This document shows positions 4,131 through 17,437 of a stretch of DNA of 64,000 nucleotides, in pieces. Numbering within the stretch: the first letter of the stretch is position 1; each line of letters starts with the position of its first letter. Made by a program: the position numbers and the translations under genes. The stretch lies in the sequence record SRR31156797_2189. One strand, given 5' to 3'. Below the pieces are notes generated by a model, which was not told where the DNA came from, did no database searches, and saw only the letters and a program-made list of their open reading frames with translations.

Positions 4131-4967
<837 letters not shown>

Positions 4968-5724: not shown

Positions 5725-6576
5725 TTAGAAGTGATACGCTATACCCAGACGCAACGCAACGTTATCCATGGGAAAATGACCTGTTTGTGTTGTATATATT
5801 TCGCCATCTAAAAAACCTGTGTATGTCGCGTCGGCATCAGCCTGGACATATTGCACAGAAAGGTCGAGAGCCCAGTTTTTTGAAAAGAGCCATTTTGCCC
5901 CTACCGTCATCTGCAGACCGACAACACTGTCTACCTCCATGTGATTATAGGCAGTTCCACCGTATTCCGATGAGAGTGTCCATTCAGGGTCGGCATCAAA
6001 CGTGCTAGAGTAAAAACCGATACCGACCCCTGCATACGGGAGGAAATTGGTTGAATTGGTATATTGGGCAAGCAGGGTGATAGTCGGTCCACTTATGATG
6101 ACGTTTCCATCGGTTTTGTCTTGCAGGGTCGACGTGTTGAAGGCTACGGTTTCCGCCTCTATTCGATCATAAGCTAATTCAAAACCAATGTACTTGTTGA
6201 AGTAATAGGAAACGTTAAATAATATCGGCGCAGCATTCTGTTTTTCATCCAGGCCGTAAATAGTCCCCAGATACGTGCCTGAGCCATATACTCCTCCCCG
6301 ACAACCGGAATCATCTTCGGTGAGCCCTCTTATTGCCGAACGAACACCAATCTGCAAATGATCTTTAATATGCTTATTGAAAAAATCACCGGAGGATACA
6401 TTGATGCTCTTTTCTGAGACCTCTGTTATTTCGCCAACGGCAACCTCTGTACTAATTTTTTTTTCAATATCCCCACTGTTGGTGGATATTGTTTTTTGAT
6501 CAGCACCGTATGCAGCAACGGTGGTAAGCAGCACAGCGGCCAGCGCCAAATATATTTGAATAAACTCTCTATTCAT
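5725..6576 (-). CDS. Outer-membrane beta-barrel protein, OmpW-like
   Basis: Signal peptide (MNREFIQIYLALAAVLLTTVAAYGA), alternating beta strands, PYAGVGIG, C-terminal LRLGIAYHF. ATG 6576 preferred over the track start 6621. Confidence 0.75.
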   Translation of the reverse strand: MNREFIQIYLALAAVLLTTVAAYGADQKTISTNSGDIEKKISTEVAVGEITEVSEKSINVSSGDFFNKHIKDHLQIGVRSAIRGLTEDDSGCRGGVYGSGTYLGTIYGLDEKQNAAPILFNVSYYFNKYIGFELAYDRIEAETVAFNTSTLQDKTDGNVIISGPTITLLAQYTNSTNFLPYAGVGIGFYSSTFDADPEWTLSSEYGGTAYNHMEVDSVVGLQMTVGAKWLFSKNWALDLSVQYVQADADATYTGFLDGEIYTTQTGHFPMDNVALRLGIAYHF

Positions 6577-7423
6577 GTTGGGTTCTACGACTCCTTTGCA
6601 AAAGGATATGATCAGGTGCAAAACCTGCGGTATTAAAATGGTAAAATAGACACCCGAGCGTAATCCGAGATTCTACGAGATTATCTGGCGGTTCCGCAGC
6701 AGGATGACCGGTAAATGGCGCAAAAAGCCCCGGCAATTTTCCATTTGTCCATTGTTCTAGAATGCAGCATTTCATGCTTGCCCTGTGGTTTGAGGTTAAG
6801 GTTACAATACGCTTCCCACTCTTTATGAGAGGAGTAAGAAAAGGGAAAGTACCAAAGAACAACCAGATCTCTTGTTTCACTTGTGATACATCAACAAGAT
6901 TAAATAAATGATGAATGTGGTAGAAAGATGAAGGAAATATGAATAAACAGAGGGCGCAGATGCTCCACCCGGCCCGGCAAAAAAGCACTCTTCCTCAGCA
7001 CCTAGTGGCATTTTGTTATCGTTTTACTCGCAGATTCGATCTACACCAGTTAACACCCAGGTTTTCTAGAATTGCACTCAGGACCCTGCCATTCTCAAAT
7101 GAATTGATAAAAGTGGCTGAGCTTTGTTAGTTTCAAAAAACAGTAGGTGCCCTCTATGAACCGTGTAGGTTAGTTTGTCCAAAACGCATCTGTTATCGAT
7201 AGAATTTTAAAAAAGCTTGGAAGAGCCTGCAAAAAGAGATAGGTTGTTCAGCGATTTGCTGAAAGAGAAAGTGTTGCGGAAAAGCAAACCAAGACTTCAG
7301 CTCCAATCACATTGCATGTCTGGAACACATCTCCATAACATTGGTCACATACGCAGTTACTCGTAGTACCGTTGGAATCCGCTTCTAGGCTTAATATTTC
7401 CCCCAAATTCCTAGGAGAAAACA

Positions 7424-8755
7424 ATGGCGCAAGAAATTCGACTGCTCAAATTACAAAACCTTTCCTCTGATGCGCGCAAAAAGTTATTGCTGCGTACAGA
7501 AAGCGACCTCGGGCAGTACCTTGAAACTGCACAAACAATTATCAAGGCTGTCCAAGAGGAAGGCGATAAGGCATTAGTGCGCTTTGGCCGTGATTTTGAC
7601 AAAGCTCCAATTGAATTGGGCGCCATCAAAGTTACAGATGAAGAATTTGCCCGTGCTGATGCTGCAGTTTCTAAAGAGCTGGTGGAGGCAATACGATTTG
7701 CCACTGAAAGTATCCGCATCTTTCATCAACAGCAGATGCCGGAACCGATGCGAATGGAGGAGATTCGGCCGGGAGTGTTTTGCGGTGAGAAGTATGCGCC
7801 AATCCCATCAGTCGCCTGCTACGTTCCCAGAGGTAAGGGATCGTTTCCCAGCGTATTAATGATGACGGCTGTTCCTGCTGTTGTTGCTGGTGTGGCAAAA
7901 GTTTGTGTACTTACCCCGGCAGGGCCTGATGGTCGGGTTGATGATGCGACTCTCTTTGCAGCTCAAGAGGTTGGGGTAAGCGAGGTATACAAATGCGGTG
8001 GTGCCCAAGCTGTCGCTGCAGTTGCTTATGGCACCGAAACAATCCCCAAAGTCGATAAGATTGTTGGCCCGGGGAGTCCCTGGGTCGTAGCAGCTAAACA
8101 GTTGCTTGCAGACATCATAGACCCCGGTACACCCGCAGGCCCAAGCGAATCAATTGTTTTTGCAGACAGTTCAGCAGATGGGGCATTAGCCGCTCTGGAC
8201 CTGATCATTGAGTCGGAACATGGCCCAGACTCTTCTGCTTACCTCGTCACAGATAGTGAGCAGGTAGCCCAAGCTGCACTGGAAGCAATTCCAAAATACT
8301 GGGAGCAGCTGGGTGAGAGCAGAAGATCTTTTTCCGAAACCGTGCTGTGTGGTGAACGCGGTGGTATTATCATTGCGGATGGCACCCGTGGCTGCATCGA
8401 TTTCATTAACGATTACGCGCCCGAGCACCTGATGATCCATAGCAGTGAACCTTTTGCTCATCTTGGCGCCATAACCAATGCCGGCGAAATTTTGCTCGGC
8501 GAGCACACCCCTATTTCACTGGGTAATTATGTGCTGGGTCCCAATGCAGTACTGCCGACTTCCGGTGCCGCCAAACTCCACTCTCCCCTTGGAGTATATG
8601 ATTACCTTAAGGCAACGGGTATCGGTTACGTAACTTCAAACGCATATCCTATCTTGGCCAGGCACACCCATGCCCTTGCCGTTTACGAAGGATTTGACGG
8701 CCATGCCCTTGCAGTTTCAGAGCTGCGAGATAAACTCCAGGGACAAAAGGGATAA
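7424..8755 (+). CDS. Histidinol dehydrogenase (HisD) family paralogue with altered active-site residues
   Basis: YVPRG, GGAQAVAAVAYGTETIPKVDKIVGPG, PAGPSE, APEHL, EGFDGH; deviates from canonical HisD at ESEH, LGNY and GPNAVLPT. RBS AGGAG present. Confidence 0.88.
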   Translation: MAQEIRLLKLQNLSSDARKKLLLRTESDLGQYLETAQTIIKAVQEEGDKALVRFGRDFDKAPIELGAIKVTDEEFARADAAVSKELVEAIRFATESIRIFHQQQMPEPMRMEEIRPGVFCGEKYAPIPSVACYVPRGKGSFPSVLMMTAVPAVVAGVAKVCVLTPAGPDGRVDDATLFAAQEVGVSEVYKCGGAQAVAAVAYGTETIPKVDKIVGPGSPWVVAAKQLLADIIDPGTPAGPSESIVFADSSADGALAALDLIIESEHGPDSSAYLVTDSEQVAQAALEAIPKYWEQLGESRRSFSETVLCGERGGIIIADGTRGCIDFINDYAPEHLMIHSSEPFAHLGAITNAGEILLGEHTPISLGNYVLGPNAVLPTSGAAKLHSPLGVYDYLKATGIGYVTSNAYPILARHTHALAVYEGFDGHALAVSELRDKLQGQKG

Positions 8756-8760
8756 ATACA

Positions 8761-9552
8761 ATGAACGGTGATCAAGCGACACCTCTGATTGCTCCAGGAT
8801 TTGGCCTTTTAGAAAAAAAGGCCTTGGTAACTGGTGCTTCAAGAGGAATCGGCAGAGCACTTGCTATTGGACTGGCTCAGGCCGGCGCAGAGGTTGTTCT
8901 TGCTGGTAGAGATACGCAAAGCCTCTCCAATGTTGCGGCGGAGATCAGCGGTGATTTTACTCGACCGACAGTACTGACCTTGGATGTGACCGATGTCGAG
9001 GATCTGCAACGCACAGTTGAAACCTGCTGCAGGAAGATCGGCGGCCTTGATATCCTTGTTAATAATGCAGGCTTTGAGCAGGTGGAAAATTCTCTGGAGC
9101 TTACTCCGTCAACCTGGGATGCCATCCTTAACACCAATCTGAAAGGTGCTTTTTTCATGGCACAGGCTGCGGCCAAGATTATGCTTGAGGGCGATGGTGG
9201 AAGTATTGTTAATGTCTGCTCTCTCGCTTCCAGTGTTGGTATCCCCACGGCAGTACCATATACAAGCTCCAAGAGCGGATTGCTTGGAATGACCCGGGCC
9301 CTGTCATCCGAGTGGGCACCTCAAGGCATCCGCGTTAACGGTATTGCTCCCGGATATTTTAGAACGGCAATGACCGATGTCTTTTTCCAGGATAAAGAAT
9401 GGGCAGAGGCTATGCTTGCTAAAATTCCTGTGGGAAGATTTGGTCGAGTGGAAGACCTCATAGGTGCAGTGATCTTTTTCTCCAGCCCAGCCGCAGAATA
9501 CATAACAGGACAGATGTTAACCATTGATGGTGGTTACCTGGCCTCTATTTAA
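8761..9552 (+). CDS. Short-chain dehydrogenase/reductase (gluconate-5-DH/KduD-like)
   Basis: TGASRGIG, NNAG, catalytic S...YTSSK, IAPGYFRT, IDGG. Confidence 0.92.
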   Translation: MNGDQATPLIAPGFGLLEKKALVTGASRGIGRALAIGLAQAGAEVVLAGRDTQSLSNVAAEISGDFTRPTVLTLDVTDVEDLQRTVETCCRKIGGLDILVNNAGFEQVENSLELTPSTWDAILNTNLKGAFFMAQAAAKIMLEGDGGSIVNVCSLASSVGIPTAVPYTSSKSGLLGMTRALSSEWAPQGIRVNGIAPGYFRTAMTDVFFQDKEWAEAMLAKIPVGRFGRVEDLIGAVIFFSSPAAEYITGQMLTIDGGYLASI

Positions 9553-9744: not shown

Positions 9745-10869
9745 ATGACGGAATCCGTGACACAAACCCCACCCCTTGTCGAATTAAACAACGTAACCAA
9801 ACAGTTTGGCAAAGTTACCGCTGTAGACAATGCAAATTTTACCTTGTCCCAAGGATCGGTTTTGACCATACTCGGGCCCAGCGGTTGCGGCAAAACCACT
9901 TTACTGAGAATGATCGCCGGTTTTGAATCGCCAACTACCGGTGATATTCGTATAAATGGTCAGCCAGTACAAACCGTCCCGCCGTATAAAAGGTCCATAG
10001 GCATGGTGTTTCAAAATCTTGCTCTTTTTCCACACATGAGCGCAGGAGAAAACATTGCATATCCTTTAAAAATGCGCCGGTTTCCCCCTCAGGATATTCC
10101 TGAGCTTGTTGAGCGTTACCTCGGGATTGTCCGTTTGTCTGGTATGGGTGAGAGGAAAATTCACCAGTTATCAGGAGGTCAGCAACAGCGAGTTGCCATT
10201 GCCCGAGCCCTGTCGTTTAATCCGGATTTACTGCTGCTTGATGAACCTCTATCAGCACTGGATAAAAAACTGCGCGAAGAGATGCAGCTTGAGTTCAGGC
10301 GGATTCAGCAGCAGCTCGGTGTAACCACCATCAATGTCACCCATGATCAGCGGGAGGCCCTGGTCATGTCTGATGAGATTATCGTCATGTCTGAAGGCGC
10401 CATTCAGCAGACAGCCGATCCTGTTTCTCTGTATCGACAACCAAGTAATCGGTTCGTTGCCTCATTTATTGGGTTAACCTCTCTTATCAGAGGAACGGTA
10501 GAAAAAAATGCAGAAGGCAAGGTTACCTTCCGTACGGGTGATATATCTCTTGAGGGCCAGGCAAGTGAACGTTTTCGATTTGGTGAAACCGTTGAAGGAG
10601 CCATACGCGCAGAACAAGTCCGTATCAGTAAAGGTATTGAGGGGGCTGAGGGGATGGATAACGTGCTTGATGGCGTTGTGGAACAACAGATTTTTGAAGG
10701 AGACCGGATGGTCTACCAGATTTCATGTTCTTCACTTGGCACAACTCCCCTGTACGTGTTTGATCATGACCCGAGCCATCATGTGCTCCATGCACATGGC
10801 GAGAAAGTAGTTGTGAGCTGGAAAGTGAGGGATCTATTAGTGTACCCATGCCAAAAATATCGCGTTTAA
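9745..10869 (+). CDS. ABC transporter ATP-binding protein (PotA-like, TOBE domain)
   Basis: GPSGCGKT, LSGGQQQRVAIARAL, LLLLDEPLSALD, VTHDQREAL. Confidence 0.93.
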   Translation: MTESVTQTPPLVELNNVTKQFGKVTAVDNANFTLSQGSVLTILGPSGCGKTTLLRMIAGFESPTTGDIRINGQPVQTVPPYKRSIGMVFQNLALFPHMSAGENIAYPLKMRRFPPQDIPELVERYLGIVRLSGMGERKIHQLSGGQQQRVAIARALSFNPDLLLLDEPLSALDKKLREEMQLEFRRIQQQLGVTTINVTHDQREALVMSDEIIVMSEGAIQQTADPVSLYRQPSNRFVASFIGLTSLIRGTVEKNAEGKVTFRTGDISLEGQASERFRFGETVEGAIRAEQVRISKGIEGAEGMDNVLDGVVEQQIFEGDRMVYQISCSSLGTTPLYVFDHDPSHHVLHAHGEKVVVSWKVRDLLVYPCQKYRV

Positions 10870-10902: not shown

Positions 10903-12006
10903 ATGAAGAACAAGCCGCAAAATAGCCTGACTCTTGACAGGCGGGACTTTTTGAAAACATCGGCCGTCGTTGCCGGTAGTGTCATGCTGGGGCCGTCCAT
11001 AGCCTTTGCTGAACAGAAAAAACCTAAGGAAATCATTGTTCGTGCCTGGGGAGGGTCTTGGGGAGAGGCACTCAAAGCAGGTGTAGCTGATGGATTTACT
11101 CAAGCAACGGGCATCAAGGTGCGCCTTGACTTTACAGAAGATAATGAAATCAAGCCCAAGATATGGGCAGCGGTTGATCAAGGCCGGATACCACCAATTC
11201 ACGTAAACTGGGATACTACTACTAACGCCACTATTTCCGCTTTGCGCGGCGTAACAGTAGACCTGAGCGACCTGAGCAACCTGAAAGGGCTGCTCCCTCT
11301 AGCCAAACCGGTTGGCCTGGAAGGGTATCCTCTGGTCAACACCTACGCCTATGTCTATGTTTGTGCTTACCGCCCGGAAGCCTTTCCTGGTGGTCCCCCT
11401 GAATCATGGAATGTACTGCTCGATCCTAAGTTCAAAGGAAGAGTTGCTCTTTATGATGACGGAATCGGTTTTAACCCGATAGCAGTTATAGCAGGCGGTG
11501 GGAGTGCTAAAGATATCCCGGGCAATATGGAACCAGGTTATGAATTTTACAAAAAATTGAAGGCAAATAAGCCGTTACTGGGAGAAGATTCGGATTTCAC
11601 CACCTGGTTTCAGAAAGGAGAAATCGATCTTGCCTGTACAATCAGCGTGAATGCACGTGCCGCTAAGCAAAGCGGTATTGATGTAGCATGGACTGTTCCC
11701 AAAGAAGGGTGCAAAGTGGATACAGATGGCTTGTGGGTACCTAAAGGGCTGCCCGCCAATGAGGAGTACTGGGCCAAGGAGTTTGTTAACTTTGCACTGA
11801 CTCAAGAAGCTCAAAAAGAATGGTGTTCCCTGTTAGGCCTGCCTCCTGTCTACCCAGGAATCGAGCCTCCTGCTGATCTGGTTGGAGATGTTTCTTACCC
11901 TACTAAACCTGAGGATTTTTCAAAACTGGTGCGCATACCTTCCAAGGTGTTGGTTGAAAACCAGCCTAAATGGTTTGCGAAGTTCAATGAAATTTTTCAG
12001 GGTTGA
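10903..12006 (+). CDS. ABC substrate-binding protein (PotD/PotF-like) with Tat signal
   Basis: DRRDFLK twin-arginine signal ending in AFA; WGGSWG, PESWNVLLDPKFKGRV, PKEG motifs. Confidence 0.88.
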   Translation: MKNKPQNSLTLDRRDFLKTSAVVAGSVMLGPSIAFAEQKKPKEIIVRAWGGSWGEALKAGVADGFTQATGIKVRLDFTEDNEIKPKIWAAVDQGRIPPIHVNWDTTTNATISALRGVTVDLSDLSNLKGLLPLAKPVGLEGYPLVNTYAYVYVCAYRPEAFPGGPPESWNVLLDPKFKGRVALYDDGIGFNPIAVIAGGGSAKDIPGNMEPGYEFYKKLKANKPLLGEDSDFTTWFQKGEIDLACTISVNARAAKQSGIDVAWTVPKEGCKVDTDGLWVPKGLPANEEYWAKEFVNFALTQEAQKEWCSLLGLPPVYPGIEPPADLVGDVSYPTKPEDFSKLVRIPSKVLVENQPKWFAKFNEIFQG

Positions 12007-12241: not shown

Positions 12242-13192
12242 TTGGCTTCTGTAAATTCTTCTTCACAGTTACCCCTCAGGTGGCGTCTATTTGATATCGC
12301 AGAGCGCATAGCAGCTGCACTCTGGCCAAAAACAATGCACAAGTATAGCGGCTACCTGCTTCTGGTACCGGCAATTCTGCTTGTGTTTGTTCTGGTGCTA
12401 GGCCTGATCTACATTGGCGGCTACAGTCTGCACGAACTGGACCTTGCAACGTACCGGCTAAAGGAGGCATTCAGCCTAAGCAACTACAGTACTGCTATAT
12501 CCAGCACCACATACAAGTCCGTGGTTTTAAGATCAATTGGTGCATCGATGCTGGTGACCTTTTTCACGCTGCTGCTTGCATTTCCCTATGCTTACCTCAT
12601 GGTTCGGGCCAGGCGGGCTGCAACGAGAAAATTTTTACTGATTAGTCTTTTCCTCCCGTTTTTTATAGGTCAGATTGTCCGTGCCTATGGCTGGCTGATT
12701 ATCCTTGGACATGAAGGATTAATAAACACCGTCTTTACCGAACTTGGTTTGCCGGCTATGGATCTTATTTATAACTATCCAGCCGTGATCCTCGGCTTAG
12801 TGCAATATATGCTGCCTTTTGCAGTGCTCCTGCTAGCACCAGCGATTACAGCCATTAGCCACGATGTGGAACTGGCCTCTGAAAGCCTTGGGGCAAACTG
12901 GCTGAGAACGTTCATCCACGTGGTTCTCCCCATGGCAAAACCAGGACTGGTCGGTTCCTCTGTGGTGGTGTTCACACTCACCTTAACAGACTTTGCCATG
13001 CCGGAAATTCTAGGCGGCGGCACGACTGATTTTATTGCCAATGCCATTTATGATGGTTTTTTTCAGCTCTCTAACTCTGGCTTGGGGTCTGCACTAGCCA
13101 TGATTCTCGTAACCCTGGGAACGGCTTTTGTTGTGATCCTTTTTTTCATCGCCGGCACCGGGACGCTTGGTTTTAATGGGAGGGAGCAATGA
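12242..13192 (+). CDS. ABC transporter permease (PotB-like)
   Basis: Multiple TM helices, VRAYGW, EAA-like loop ELASESLGA, PEILGG. Confidence 0.9.
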   Translation: MASVNSSSQLPLRWRLFDIAERIAAALWPKTMHKYSGYLLLVPAILLVFVLVLGLIYIGGYSLHELDLATYRLKEAFSLSNYSTAISSTTYKSVVLRSIGASMLVTFFTLLLAFPYAYLMVRARRAATRKFLLISLFLPFFIGQIVRAYGWLIILGHEGLINTVFTELGLPAMDLIYNYPAVILGLVQYMLPFAVLLLAPAITAISHDVELASESLGANWLRTFIHVVLPMAKPGLVGSSVVVFTLTLTDFAMPEILGGGTTDFIANAIYDGFFQLSNSGLGSALAMILVTLGTAFVVILFFIAGTGTLGFNGREQ

Positions 13193-13989
13193 TTGGTTCT
13201 CGGAGCAAGGCATTGGTGTTGTGGACAATTGTTGGATTCGACTTGCTACTTTTGAGCCTGCCAACCCTGATCATCATAGGTGCTTCTTTTACTTCAGGTG
13301 ATATTGTCCAATTCCCGCCGGAGGGCTTCTCCCTGAAATGGTATAGTAAGCTCTGGCTGCTAGACGATTTTAAGTCGGCCTTTTGGAGAACCCTGTACGT
13401 CTCTATTATTTGTACATTGGTGAGTATACCAGCTGGGACTTTGGCGGCCATTGGACTGGCAAGGTATCGAATTCGGTTTCATACAACCATACAGGTCTAC
13501 CTGCTGCTTCCATTTACCATTCCACTGGTGGTATCCGGCTTGGGCATGATGATCTTTTTCGGTGAGATTCGGATCCTGGGTCAGCTGTGGCCGGTGGGAC
13601 TGGGCCTTTGTATTATCAATCTCCCTTTTATGATCTGGGCGGTGAGTGCAGCCGTAAATGGGCTGGATGACCAACTGGAAAATGCTGCAGCAAACTGTGG
13701 AGCGCCCCCCCTACAGGTTTTTCTAACTGTTACCCTCCCTGGAGTTATGCCAGGTGTTATCACCGGGGCACTGCTTATGTTTATCCTGGCCTTTAATGAA
13801 TTTCTGGTCAGCCTTTTTCTTACGGACGCCCGGACTGTTACCCTGCCAGTATCTATTTATAACTCTATCCGCAGTGTTATCACACCCGACCTGGCAGCTG
13901 TTTCAGTTGTTTATATTGCCATAGCCTTTATTGCAGTTTTGCTGTTGGACAAATTGGTTGGGCTGGAGTTATTTCTGAAATCAAAATAG
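13189..13989 (+). CDS. ABC transporter permease (PotC-like)
   Basis: FPPEGFSLKWY, LENAAANCGA EAA loop, FNEF, TLPV. Confidence 0.9.
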   Translation: MIGSRSKALVLWTIVGFDLLLLSLPTLIIIGASFTSGDIVQFPPEGFSLKWYSKLWLLDDFKSAFWRTLYVSIICTLVSIPAGTLAAIGLARYRIRFHTTIQVYLLLPFTIPLVVSGLGMMIFFGEIRILGQLWPVGLGLCIINLPFMIWAVSAAVNGLDDQLENAAANCGAPPLQVFLTVTLPGVMPGVITGALLMFILAFNEFLVSLFLTDARTVTLPVSIYNSIRSVITPDLAAVSVVYIAIAFIAVLLLDKLVGLELFLKSK

Positions 13990-13992
13990 GTT

Positions 13993-15249
13993 ATGCAAAA
14001 TATGAATCATATTGAGCTGCAGTTTGGACAGGTAACCAGCAAATATATAAATACCCCAAATGATTTTATAAGCCACATGCTTGAACATATTGCATGGCGT
14101 ATGGGATGCAGCATTCATCTGGAGTGGAACAACGAAAAATGGCAGGAATTGGGACAAGCCCTGGCACAAGAGATAATAAAGCTTGTTCCATTGCATCGAG
14201 AAGCCGCGACTCTGGGCATGATTGATGATGGAAGTGCTGAGGTGGGGGTAGAGCTTGATGTAACAGCAGGGCTTAGCCTGGAAACAGCAGCAGTTATTGA
14301 CATGGACTATTTCCTTTCCCTGCGCTGTGAGCAGCTTACCTCAGGACACCCCCTCGTGAAGGTCTTGCAAGGGATTGCTCAAGGCCTTGACGCCCGCATT
14401 TCGATTCTAGTGGGCAGTCTCAGCGATCCGCATCATACGTGGGAGGGAATCTTCCGAGGGCTTGGAACTGCACTGAGTCAACTCTATGCTCCTCCTGTAG
14501 AAAAGGCAGCGTTTTCTACAACCATACATGAAGGTCTGCAGTCTGAAGGGGTGCAGCTTATTCGGAGTTCATGCCAGGGTGCGGAGATAGAGCGCGAGAC
14601 TGCAGAAACTAAATTGCTGGTATCTGTTGATTATAACGCACGACCTAATGCTTCATTCTCCTACAAGGGTGCTCCTATTAAGCATTACGATGCCGCCGCC
14701 CTTGATGGACTACATGATCTATTGGAACGTATTGCAATTGAATGCGGCTTTCATCTCAGCCTTATATTCACAGCCAAGGCATTGAGCTCAAGCCATGTGT
14801 TGCTTGAAGATACCGGCATGGTGCTAGGTAGGGTTCTACGAGAGATTTTGGTACAACGAATGATGGACCAAGGAATTAATGGTGCGGGTTCTTCTTTAAA
14901 CGTACCGTCTGACATCCGGCAGCAAGCTATTTCCGTTGGTATCAGCGTTGAGGGACGAAAATCCTGTCTCTTTATCCCCTTTACGACTGACCGGGGGCAA
15001 TTGTATAAGAATTTTATTCTGGGGCACACTGTTTTTGGTGGCTTGTATTCCGAGGATCTGGATGACTTTTTCGATGGTTTTTCCTGGGGATTGGGTTGCT
15101 CGATCATGATTCATTGTAAAGAAACATTGGGACCAGAGGCCGCCTGGGGGATGATTTTCACACATTTTGGCAATGCCTTACGCGAAGTATTACGACCGAA
15201 TCCTAGCCGGAGAGGGGTTCCACCGGGGGTAAAGGCAAATCTTTATTAA
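13993..15249 (+). CDS. Tandem-duplicated imidazoleglycerol-phosphate dehydratase (HisB/IGPD)-like protein
   Basis: Half 1: FISHMLEH, MIDDG, SDPHHTWEGIFRGLG. Half 2: ERETAET, SSHVLLEDTGMVLG, EGRK, DFFDGF, MIH, FGNALRE, GVPPGVK. About twice the length of HisB. Confidence 0.78.
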   Translation: MQNMNHIELQFGQVTSKYINTPNDFISHMLEHIAWRMGCSIHLEWNNEKWQELGQALAQEIIKLVPLHREAATLGMIDDGSAEVGVELDVTAGLSLETAAVIDMDYFLSLRCEQLTSGHPLVKVLQGIAQGLDARISILVGSLSDPHHTWEGIFRGLGTALSQLYAPPVEKAAFSTTIHEGLQSEGVQLIRSSCQGAEIERETAETKLLVSVDYNARPNASFSYKGAPIKHYDAAALDGLHDLLERIAIECGFHLSLIFTAKALSSSHVLLEDTGMVLGRVLREILVQRMMDQGINGAGSSLNVPSDIRQQAISVGISVEGRKSCLFIPFTTDRGQLYKNFILGHTVFGGLYSEDLDDFFDGFSWGLGCSIMIHCKETLGPEAAWGMIFTHFGNALREVLRPNPSRRGVPPGVKANLY

Positions 15250-15760: not shown

Positions 15761-16251
15761 GGGATAGACTTTGACTACTTAGATCCTCTTCACGAACTTG
15801 GCAAGGTCGGTATTCCAGATTCTATTTTGCTGAAACCTGGCAAACTGACACCAGATGAATTCAAGGTTATGAAAACCCATGCATCTCTAGGGGCTAAAAC
15901 GCTGGAGTTGGTCTATGACCAATACCCCAACAGTACCTTTTTAAAAATGGGCATTGAGATAGCAAAATATCATCATGAAAAATGGAATGGCGCCGGATAT
16001 CCTTACTGTCTGGCGGGAGAGGCCATTCCTTTAAGTGCACGAAAATGTCACTGGTCGATGTCTATGATGGCTTACGAGCACGCAGACCGTACAAAGAGCC
16101 TTTTGATCATGAAAAGCGTAAGAATATTATTGTTAGCGAAAGTGACACAAACTTTGATCCCGAACTGATTAAAATTTTTCTGAAAATTCATACACACTTT
16201 GATGCGACAGTGACCTCATGGACAGCCAAGGAACAATTGGAATCGAGGTAA
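15761..16251 (+). pseudogene. HD-GYP c-di-GMP phosphodiesterase remnant (5' truncated, frameshifted)
   Basis: PLHELGKVGIPDSILLKPGKLT...HHEKWNGAGYP...LSAR, then a frame change near 16042 into SLVDVYDGLRARRPYK...FDP. In-frame TAA at 15758 with no upstream domain; HD reads HE. Confidence 0.82.
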
Positions 16252-16365
16252 CTCTTCAACGAGCATACGGAACTAACCAGCCGCTTGTTGATCTGGTTTA
16301 CCCCTTTGCTGCAAATACTCCTTAATAGGCCCGCAAAACTAAGAACGGAATAATTGGCGATAAAA

Positions 16366-17437
16366 ATGCAAACCACTGATCAGGATCCAGCGGCATTAAG
16401 TAGTGATCGAATCCTTCAACTCGAAAAGAAAAAACGTGTTTTCTTAATTTACGTTCTGAGTTTGATAGGCTCAGCAGTGTGCCTAATATTTGGGATTCAT
16501 AATTTAAGTGAGGGGCTGAATATCGTTGGTGTTACAGTGATTTCGATAGCAATATTAGCCTGTACGCCTGTACAAATCTTGCCTATTTTTTTTTACAGTG
16601 GCAATGCTGATTTTGCTGTTACTATCATGGGTGTCGTGCTTCTGGCACTAGGAGGATTTCTTTTAGTAAGTGGTGGATACTTCAACACTGGAATACTTTG
16701 GATATATCCACTGATAGCTATAGCAATTTTCACCAATAACTTTCGAACAGGACTCATCTATTCTTGTTTTTTTGTCACACCCTGCACATTATTACTTTTT
16801 ATTCCAGATAATCCACTCATGTTTGCAGCATATTCACTGACGGTAAAAATACGTTTTTTGGTAACTCTTACCGTCCTACTGATTTTATGCTTAACTGCAG
16901 AGTATTCAAATGAACACTTACGAAGGCAGGTACTAAGACTTCATAACCAACTTGTGTTGGCTGCTAATACTGATAGCTTAACACAGCTGCCTAACAGGAG
17001 ATATATATTCGATTTTTTTCGTTAATGACGAAATTCAAGGTCACACGGAAAATCATGCTGTCCTGTTATGCGATATAGATACCTTTAAGGACATCAATGA
17101 CTCATTAGGCCATGACGCAGGTGATAAAGTTCTACAGGAAGTAGCTTTTCGCCTGCGTCAATCTATCCGCAGCAGTGATGTCATAGCACGTTGGGGCGGG
17201 GAAGAATTTTTGGTATTACTACCAGACACTTCACCTGCCATTTCTCTTCAACGTGCTGATAAAATAAGAAAATCAATAGGCGATGCACCTATCAATCTAG
17301 ATGGGAAAGACTATAGAATTACTGTTAGTATCGGCGTTTCTTCCACAAACGGTAACCGAAGCGCACGTGCCATTTTGAAAAAGGCTGACGAAAAATTATA
17401 CCTCGCCAAAACTCAAGGGAGAAACCGTGTCTGCTAG
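16366..17437 (+). pseudogene. Membrane-anchored diguanylate cyclase split by one extra base in a T7 run
   Basis: TM region ending TDSLTQLPNRR, stop at 17025. Removing one T from 17013-17019 gives ...LLCDIDTFKDINDSLGHDAGD...RSSD...RWGGEEF...GRNRVC. Confidence 0.85.

Follow-up and report, generated by a model that had tools for sequence, protein, structure and literature searches.

Does a protein chain that carries two degraded copies of imidazoleglycerol-phosphate dehydratase (IGPD) still hold one working active site? The question is raised by a gene on the plus strand, positions 13993..15249, of a 64,000-nucleotide stretch of sequence record SRR31156797_2189; this whole stretch of DNA is called the window here. 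An initial annotation, made from the letters alone, had described the gene product as a tandem IGPD fusion whose halves had lost complementary metal ligands. IGPD, a textbook enzyme and a target for herbicides and antibacterials, has been described as a homo-24-mer in which every subunit carries two HHxxE motifs; the canonical 24-mer is Mn-dependent with 432 symmetry, and the fold consists of a four-helix bundle between two four-stranded sheets. We found that the tandem IGPD of the window keeps a single set of active-site residues, near-invariant across its family and divided between its two halves. From this pattern we consider it fairly probable that the protein is a real dehydratase of imidazoleglycerol phosphate (IGP), in which each chain forms a pseudo-heterodimer around one active site.

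One reading frame encodes two IGPD folds

The gene is an intact open reading frame of 418 amino acids plus stop, and its start lies 4 bases past the stop of the upstream permease gene. Its parts, with the two halves delimited by VIA-align, are as follows:

13993..15249, plus strand: tandem IGPD gene
13993..14496, plus strand: half 1 (residues 1–168), IGPD fold, predicted 'chain A' role
14497..14568, plus strand: linker (residues 169–192), poorly conserved, confidently modelled, taking the place of the half 1 C-loop
14569..15246, plus strand: half 2 (residues 193–418), IGPD fold, predicted 'chain A'' and 'chain C' roles

The Pfam IGPD profile (PF00475) matched the protein at 54.6 bits (cut-off 27) in two stretches, one in either half, and the NCBIfam HisB models gave separate matches at residues 8–164 and 197–410, so the two-domain reading of the initial annotation held at the profile level. 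A sequence search of the PDB returned weak matches only, half 1 to the Pyrococcus furiosus (P. furiosus) IGPD and half 2 to that of Mycobacterium tuberculosis (M. tuberculosis). The AlphaFold2 model, built on a 140-sequence alignment, had a predicted local distance difference score (pLDDT) of 95.4 and a predicted template-modelling score (pTM) of 0.94; Foldseek ranks 1–28 for this model were all IGPD, with a target-normalised TM of ~0.8. With VIA-align, residues 1–168 gave Z scores of 19.6–20.1 to 1rhy (1rhy_B), 2ae8 (2ae8_D) and 5dnl (5dnl_A), and residues 193–418 gave Z ~21 to the M. tuberculosis and A. thaliana enzymes (6khh, 4mu4, 4gqu), so that structure comparison placed both halves in the IGPD fold at Z ~20–21. 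As modelled, the tandem IGPD thus consists of two complete IGPD folds with a linker of ~24 residues between them.

The two halves share just 15.7% identity, and each shares 16–19% with one canonical IGPD. Half 1 begins approximately at the position of canonical E21 and is hence without the R-x-T-x-E-T strand, as judged from the alignments. A search of the ESM Atlas returned IGPD clusters only; the nearest was a 526-amino-acid IGPD family of diatoms (score 0.91). A complex prediction for two copies of the tandem IGPD scored 0.09 against a mark of 0.32, which speaks neither for nor against oligomerisation.

Active-site residues are divided between the halves

Both halves were aligned with the Desulfogranum marinum canonical IGPD (locus L026). 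The A. thaliana position numbers used throughout were placed on that sequence through its conserved motifs, not by alignment with an A. thaliana sequence. Table 2 of PMC4509728 gives the canonical Mn1 ligands as H47, H74, H169 and E173, and the Mn2 ligands as H73, E77, H145 and H170. In PMC6029752, chain A supplies H47, H169, H170, E173, K177 and H55, chain A' supplies H73, H74, E77 and H145, and chain C supplies R99, R121, S199 and K201; R121 is the phosphate-binding arginine from the third subunit (PMC6029752 and PMC10978614). It follows from the published chain assignment that two subunits make two equivalent di-Mn sites across a two-fold axis.

Queried with the tandem IGPD, a set of 5.8 billion proteins yielded 490 matches; 1.84 billion cluster representatives, searched exhaustively, yielded 122, of which 46 were at E 1e-30 or better. 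The conservation counts below refer to an alignment of the window protein with 139 matches up to P0142, each of at least 385 amino acids (n = 140); P0015, P0136 and P0141, which are shorter, were left out, as was everything past P0142 (mostly fragments or single-domain proteins). The motifs compared are:

14065..14100, plus strand: FISHMLEHIAWR (residues 25–36), half 1; includes FISHML at 25–30
14125..14148, plus strand: WNNEKWQE (45–52), degenerate first HHxxE motif, half 1
14425..14457, plus strand: DPHHTWEGIFR (145–155), intact second motif, half 1
14593..14607, plus strand: RETAE (201–205), canonical R-x-T-x-E strand, half 2
14710..14727, plus strand: LHDLLE (240–245), degenerate FxxHML motif, half 2
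14788..14811, plus strand: SSHVLLED (266–273), altered first motif, half 2
14950..14961, plus strand: EGRK (320–323), half 2; R322 corresponds to R121
15052..15072, plus strand: EDLDDFF (354–360), invariant acidic stretch over the H145 ligand position, half 2
15130..15150, plus strand: GPEAAWG (380–386), degenerate second motif, half 2
15199..15243, plus strand: C-loop, NPSRRGVPPGVKANL (403–417), half 2

All motifs quoted in the initial annotation (FISHML, WNNEKWQE, DPHHTWE, SSHVLLED, GINGAG, EGRK and MIH) were present at the residues given for them. In half 1, H28 corresponds to the H47 ligand (139/140), and H147, H148 and E151 correspond to H169, H170 and E173 (140/140 each). The phosphate-pocket positions of this half are equally fixed, with Arg at H55 (R36; 140/140) and at K177 (R155; 140/140), and His at Q51 (H32; 138/140). 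The positions of H73, H74 and E77 in half 1 are variable, His occurring at H73 in just 6/140, and the H145 position is Leu in 111/140; half 1 is thus without the A' ligand set, and it also lacks both arginines.

Half 2 is the reciprocal of this. H268 and E272 correspond to H73 and E77 (140/140 each), D273 to D78 (139/140), R322 to R121 (140/140) and E205 to the catalytic E21 (140/140; half 2 only). V269 replaces H74 and is Val in 137/140, so the altered metal site that had been predicted from a His-to-Val change is a family-wide trait. The R99 position, in GINGAG at residues 294–299, is Gly in 123/140. Within the C-loop, K414 corresponds to K201 (Lys in 135/140) and the S199 position is Gly; pLDDT falls below 50 at residues 413–418, as in a mobile loop. 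The positions of H47, and of H169, H170 and E173, vary across the 140 sequences in half 2. The histidine of MIH (residues 372–374) had been proposed as the later metal ligand, and here the assignment had to be changed: H374 is conserved without aligning with H145, and in the alignments to canonical IGPD it is D358 of EDLDDFF that falls at that position (D357, 140/140; D358, 139/140).

Measured against the eight canonical Mn ligands, the tandem form therefore has six identical, one acidic (D358 at H145) and one lost (V269 at H74). In the phosphate pocket R121 and K201 are kept, K177 and H55 are replaced by Arg, Q51 by His, and R99 and S199 by Gly. The fold of both halves, the six shared ligands, the R-x-T-x-E strand, R121 and the C-loop Lys are held in common with canonical IGPD (4MU4, 4GQU). 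The two differ at H74, H145, R99, K177 and H55 (Val, acidic, Gly, Arg and Arg in the tandem form) and in layout: canonical IGPD carries the full site residues in each domain, whereas the tandem form has one face per domain, one full (D/N)xHHxxE motif pair per chain and one predicted site per two domains. Among 535 aligned IGPDs, Del Duca et al. 2020 (PMC7284861) found HHxxE without exception in both half-domains, a rule that fails for both domains of the tandem form.

The kept residues divide between the halves as the published chain assignment of ligands requires (PMC6029752; PMC4509728, Table 2; PMC10978614, section 6), with the H47/H169/H170/E173 side in half 1 and the H73/E77 side in half 2, which upholds the complementary ligand loss described initially. 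Because the complementary set is near-invariant while the reciprocal positions are free across 140 sequences, the pattern is not due to chance. The split in conservation strongly supports a signature of selection for one composite site per chain, and the earlier suggestion of one functional interface per chain fits it well.

A predicted single-chain pseudo-heterodimer

These residues suggest how the tandem IGPD could work. An ancestral A/A' pair would have become fused, with one of its two equivalent sites kept and the other left to decay, and half 1 and half 2 would pack like the A/A' pair across the former two-fold axis. Half 1 would bring H28, H147, H148 and E151, together with the phosphate-pocket residues H32, R36 and R155; half 2 would bring H268, E272, D273, the acidic residue at the H145 position, E205, R322 and K414. 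Each chain would then hold one site with two Mn ions, one of which, owing to Val at H74, would have three protein ligands instead of four. The predicted reaction is the dehydration of IGP to imidazole-acetol phosphate.

The third-subunit residues (R322 and K414), which are kept only in half 2, may come from half 2 of a neighbouring chain acting as lid and phosphate donor. Half 2 would in that case be used twice, as metal partner within its own chain and as phosphate and lid donor to its neighbour. Colouring an octahedral shell in two colours such that its two-fold pairs are mixed makes the three-fold trimers uniform, so a 12-chain tetrahedral particle would reproduce every contact. Twelve chains could thus form a 24-domain shell of tetrahedral rather than octahedral symmetry, in which trimers of half 1 and trimers of half 2 would alternate on the three-fold axes and 12 sites would replace 24.

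Family members occupy the place of hisB

The 140 aligned proteins comprise a stand-alone form of ~416 amino acids (67/140) and a form of ~640 amino acids with an N-terminal HAD phosphatase domain (73/140). Bifunctional HisB of the E. coli type likewise has an N-terminal HAD phosphatase before its IGPD; the tandem IGPD of the window differs in this respect, no HAD domain being found in it by Pfam scan. The HAD domain of the fused form (in P0104 and others, ~residues 15–225) is of the HAD-IA or beta-phosphoglucomutase kind (TIGR02009, 94.9 bits against a cut-off of 153) and passed no equivalog model in our scan; its sequence makes it a candidate new type of histidinol-phosphatase. The HAD domain of E. 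coli HisB-N belongs to another kind.

We fetched 25 genome loci for family members. In all ten fused loci scanned with Pfam (L006, L007, L008, L011, L013, L014, L015, L018, L020 and L025), the HAD-fused gene adjoins an Aminotran_1_2 and/or a Histidinol_dh gene. Canonical IGPD holds the hisB place in his clusters, and some tandem family members occupy that same place. One is a 426-amino-acid stand-alone tandem gene in a Peribacteria metagenome-assembled genome (MAG; locus L016), where the order is hisG-hisD-[tandem]-hisH-hisA-hisF-hisIE. The same locus (6092–7627) encodes a HisG fused to an inositol-monophosphatase-like domain, a fold that includes HisN-type histidinol-phosphatases. A Thiomargarita MAG (L005, 3855–6827) carries a 991-amino-acid triple fusion of aminotransferase, HAD and two IGPD domains (HisC-HAD-IGPD2), the N-terminal part of which passes TIGR01141 hisC (330.9 bits against 276.55); this chain would span three consecutive histidine steps.

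Whole-genome scans with PF00475 found no canonical-scoring IGPD in any of ten fused-type genomes (G003, G004, G005, G010–G015 and G097, in the last of which only the 650-amino-acid frame was seen), nor in G002, although many of these genomes are MAGs, in which a copy that is not found is not proven absent. Five fused-type genomes encode HisA/HisF (5/5) and HisG (4/5), and exactly one HisD each, the copy beside the fusion. In an even sample of 51 genomes from the order of G012, 46 had canonical IGPD only, 3 the tandem form only, 2 neither and 0 both. Judged by gene content, this is the pattern of hisB displacement, and the tandem family seems to be the sole IGP dehydratase in many bacteria.

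The HisD genes beside tandem IGPD genes are also unusual. Fifteen were compared, five from loci of the transporter type described below (the window, L001, L002, L003 and L024) and ten from fused-type loci. At the positions of E. coli Q259, D360 and H367, all 15 have Glu, Asn and Ala (numbering checked on an alignment with 1k75). The canonical HisD of D. marinum has Gln, Asp and His there, and the HisD of L016 has Asp and His at the D360 and H367 positions. The variant HisDs form one clade, with 44–49% identity to the window copy and 35–37% to canonical HisD. Since the variant stands beside the tandem IGPD in 15/15, dehydratase and dehydrogenase travel together as a module.

Tandem proteins are named 'hypothetical' or 'HAD hydrolase' in databases, and neither a tandem or double IGPD nor a HAD-IGPD2 fusion was found described in the full-text literature covered (subscription journals and supplements lay outside its scope). 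The tandem IGPD represents a known enzyme in a new architecture and belongs to a large unnamed family. Two shorter and more distant two-domain IGPD-like proteins, P0186 (358 amino acids) and P0225 (405 amino acids), have the same complementary pattern, and the two-domain architecture therefore extends past the aligned family. P0160 (242 amino acids), P0143, P0145 and P0164 each comprise one half only, either half 2 or half 1, and such half-only proteins may be split two-gene forms or mere fragments.

The unusual residues predate the duplication

The substitutions at H74 and R99 had led to the suggestion of a non-phosphorylated substrate. The tandem query also matched 23 single-domain proteins (185–235 amino acids), in 21 of which H74 is replaced by another residue (V, L, I, T, A or P). 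In most of these 21 the change is accompanied by Gly at R99 and by Arg at K177 and H55, and all of them retain H47, H73, E77, R121, H169, H170 and E173 within one domain. At E 1e-10 or better, P0198, one of these proteins, has 460 relatives, which stem for the most part from Peregrinibacteria and further uncultured groups, and proteins of this 'His-Val' subtype are named hypothetical protein at NCBI and IGPD at JGI. Alignment confirmed the His-Val motif in three metagenome-contig loci of P0198 relatives, and all three have a his context:

L053: hisG-hisC-hisD-[single-domain IGPD]-hisH-hisAF-hisIE
L060: hisA-hisF-hisIE-hisD-[single-domain IGPD]
L058: [single-domain IGPD]-hisC

The presence of the same residues in single-domain his-operon relatives places Val at H74 and Gly at R99 before the duplication, and their occurrence in proteins that stand in the place of hisB (3/3 loci) gives no sign of a dephosphorylated substrate. 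The same changes occur in the HAD-fused forms, the only IGPD found in their genomes, and in half 2 the phosphate-binding R121 and C-loop Lys hardly vary, if at all. The suggestion of a non-phosphorylated substrate thus lost its footing.

The His-Val subtype and the tandem family share the HV form of motif 1, G-x-N-G-A at R99, HHxWE...R, IAW(R/H) and an AGVKGTL C-loop. They differ in that the subtype is a single domain of ~215 amino acids with both faces of the site, presumably homomeric. From these shared motifs, the His-Val single-domain subtype is probably the stock of the tandem form. In a tree built from both halves and single-domain IGPDs, the origin did not resolve: half 1 sits on a very long branch (1.57), and half 2 groups with six single-domain sequences. 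The single-domain subtype was not found in samples of genomes of the candidate phyla radiation (41 in a class sample, 4 in an order sample).

The window operon and alternative readings

The tandem IGPD gene of the window closes a series of genes on the same strand:

7424..8755, plus strand: variant histidinol dehydrogenase (HisD*), first gene of the operon; PF00815 446.5 bits, TIGR00069 436.7 bits (cut-off 243.8)
8761..9552, plus strand: short-chain dehydrogenase (SDR) of the sugar/polyol dehydrogenase kind
9745..10869, plus strand: ABC ATPase, PotA-like, with TOBE domain
10903..12006, plus strand: periplasmic solute-binding protein (SBP_bac_8) with TAT signal, distantly PotD-like
12242..13192, plus strand: ABC permease, PotB-like
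13189..13989, plus strand: ABC permease, PotC-like

The solute-binding protein had distant PotD-like PDB matches only (best E 2.2e-12), which point to no ligand, and Rfam gave no RNA family at gathering score in the window, with no leader or riboswitch seen before the operon. The core operon (HisD*, the four ABC genes and the tandem IGPD) was confirmed with Pfam in the window, L003 and L024. L003 (53% identity) has its SDR after the IGPD; in L024 (52%) the IGPD frame is broken and no SDR was seen. L001 (D. marinum, 82%) and L002 (63%) have the open reading frame layout of the window.

Canonical IGPD was also present in four of the five genomes with a stand-alone copy (G001, G006, G007 and G009, the last with the context of its stand-alone copy outside the Pfam-scanned loci; not G008), and a tblastn search of the 64-kb window with the D. 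marinum canonical IGPD gave nothing significant (best E 1.2). In an even sample from the order of G001 the tandem gene occurred in 1/61 genomes, G001 itself; 58 of the other 60 gave a canonical match, which was partial in two of the 58. From the canonical copies in relatives and this sporadic distribution, the window gene is an accessory copy.

Several results weigh against a plain IGP dehydratase of the composite kind. The sporadic occurrence just given is one. D. marinum, the closest relative, encodes both a canonical IGPD (222.4 bits) and, besides its variant HisD, a canonical one (556.8 bits; cut-off 455), so that the window clade is not needed there for histidine synthesis. The transporter and SDR of the operon are not explained by a plain IGPD role, the tandem IGPD scores far below the cut-offs of all NCBIfam HisB equivalog models (best 45.6 bits against 231), and it lacks both a Mn ligand (H74) and a phosphate ligand (R99). 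The caution that MAGs impose on the fused-type genomes counts here too. Finally, a figure legend of PMC4509728 puts Glu21 on chain A, with Gln51 and Lys177, whereas in the tandem family its equivalent is invariant in half 2, on the A'/C side, and lacking in half 1. Either the catalytic acid arrives differently in the tandem family, or the chain assignment of Glu21 needs checking. Half 1 has family-specific invariant acids (E31, E83 and E113) that, from their conservation, might stand in for Glu21.

The strongest alternative, which we nonetheless hold to be unlikely, is that the window clade is a neofunctionalised dehydratase acting on an imported IGP-like compound, such as unphosphorylated imidazole glycerol or another heteroaryl polyol, with the SDR and the HisD-like enzyme processing that compound further. 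Such a reading would keep the changed-substrate idea of the initial annotation for the transporter-linked clade alone. The conserved core operon (and the same layout in L001 and L002), the canonical IGPD alongside in 4/5 stand-alone-copy genomes, the kinship of the SDR with sugar/polyol dehydrogenases and an operon in which we found no kinase, HisC or phosphatase would all suit such a role. The protein itself argues otherwise. Its ligand, catalytic and phosphate-pocket residues are all identical to those of the his-linked fused clade, and the Gly at R99 and Val at H74 also occur in his-operon members. Only six positions (Y224, G226, I229, M276, W365 and N416) set the window clade (60 tips) apart from the 72 fused sequences that lie beyond it, and no ligand, catalytic or otherwise known functional residue is among the six. 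With the active-site residues the same as in the his-linked clade, the same chemistry is expected for the window copy.

A catalytically dead IGPD-like protein, serving as scaffold or regulator (it might partner canonical IGPD, for instance, or sense a histidine intermediate), is very improbable. The two lost canonical residues (H74 and R99), the catalytic Glu on the unexpected half and the very low HisB equivalog scores would fit it, but the full complementary site is under strong purifying selection, and relatives of the protein are fused to HisC and a phosphatase and are the only IGPD found in genomes with the rest of the pathway. An artefact, in which two adjacent hisB genes were joined by a frameshift or assembly error, has nothing but the unusual length in its favour and can be dismissed: the same continuous two-domain frame recurs in 139 other proteins of at least 385 amino acids from many sources and in 25 genome loci, and the halves are too far apart in sequence (15.7% identity, as above).

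We therefore return to the composite IGP dehydratase, and to what it may be part of. The tandem IGPD, the co-evolving variant HisD and the putative new HAD-IA histidinol-phosphatase would together make up a late histidine module that replaces hisB, hisD and the phosphatase, with hosts among large sulfur bacteria, many Desulfobacterales, Magnetococcales and some Actinomycetota. In the window lineage this module may have been re-used, with importer and SDR, for salvage of an external imidazole compound. The window operon is probably a second late-histidine module, or a salvage module, fed by an imported compound. The larger picture, which joins a symmetry-reduced 12-chain cage, an unrecognised late histidine module and its re-use for salvage in the window lineage, is offered only tentatively, as a whole that may well not hold in every part.

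Implications and neighbouring genes

Duplication, fusion and complementary decay leading to one site per two domains would be a clean natural experiment on the evolution of a symmetric oligomeric enzyme, and the family bears on the question of what the di-Mn site can do without (H74 and R99). Owing to the names 'hypothetical' and 'HAD hydrolase' and to HisB scores below cut-off, genomes that rely on the tandem form will look like histidine auxotrophs in pathway reconstructions; at least one published survey (PMC10804674) marks histidine prototrophy by an annotated IGPD. Other missing or misread steps may likewise trace to the linked variant HisD and to the HAD-IA domain, and the transporter operon of the window points to an uptake or salvage route not yet known.

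Outside the operon, a NifH/frxC-family gene (4131–4958, minus strand; 410 bits) lies upstream, and D. marinum has the same neighbour (L001, 1966–2790). Past the tandem IGPD gene, an HD-GYP (HD_5) gene without its N-terminal part (15761–16251) is split in two frames (15761–16168 and 15979–16251) and is a probable pseudogene or frameshift error. A membrane-anchored GGDEF gene follows at 16354–17437, likewise in two frames (16354–17025 and 16982–17437).

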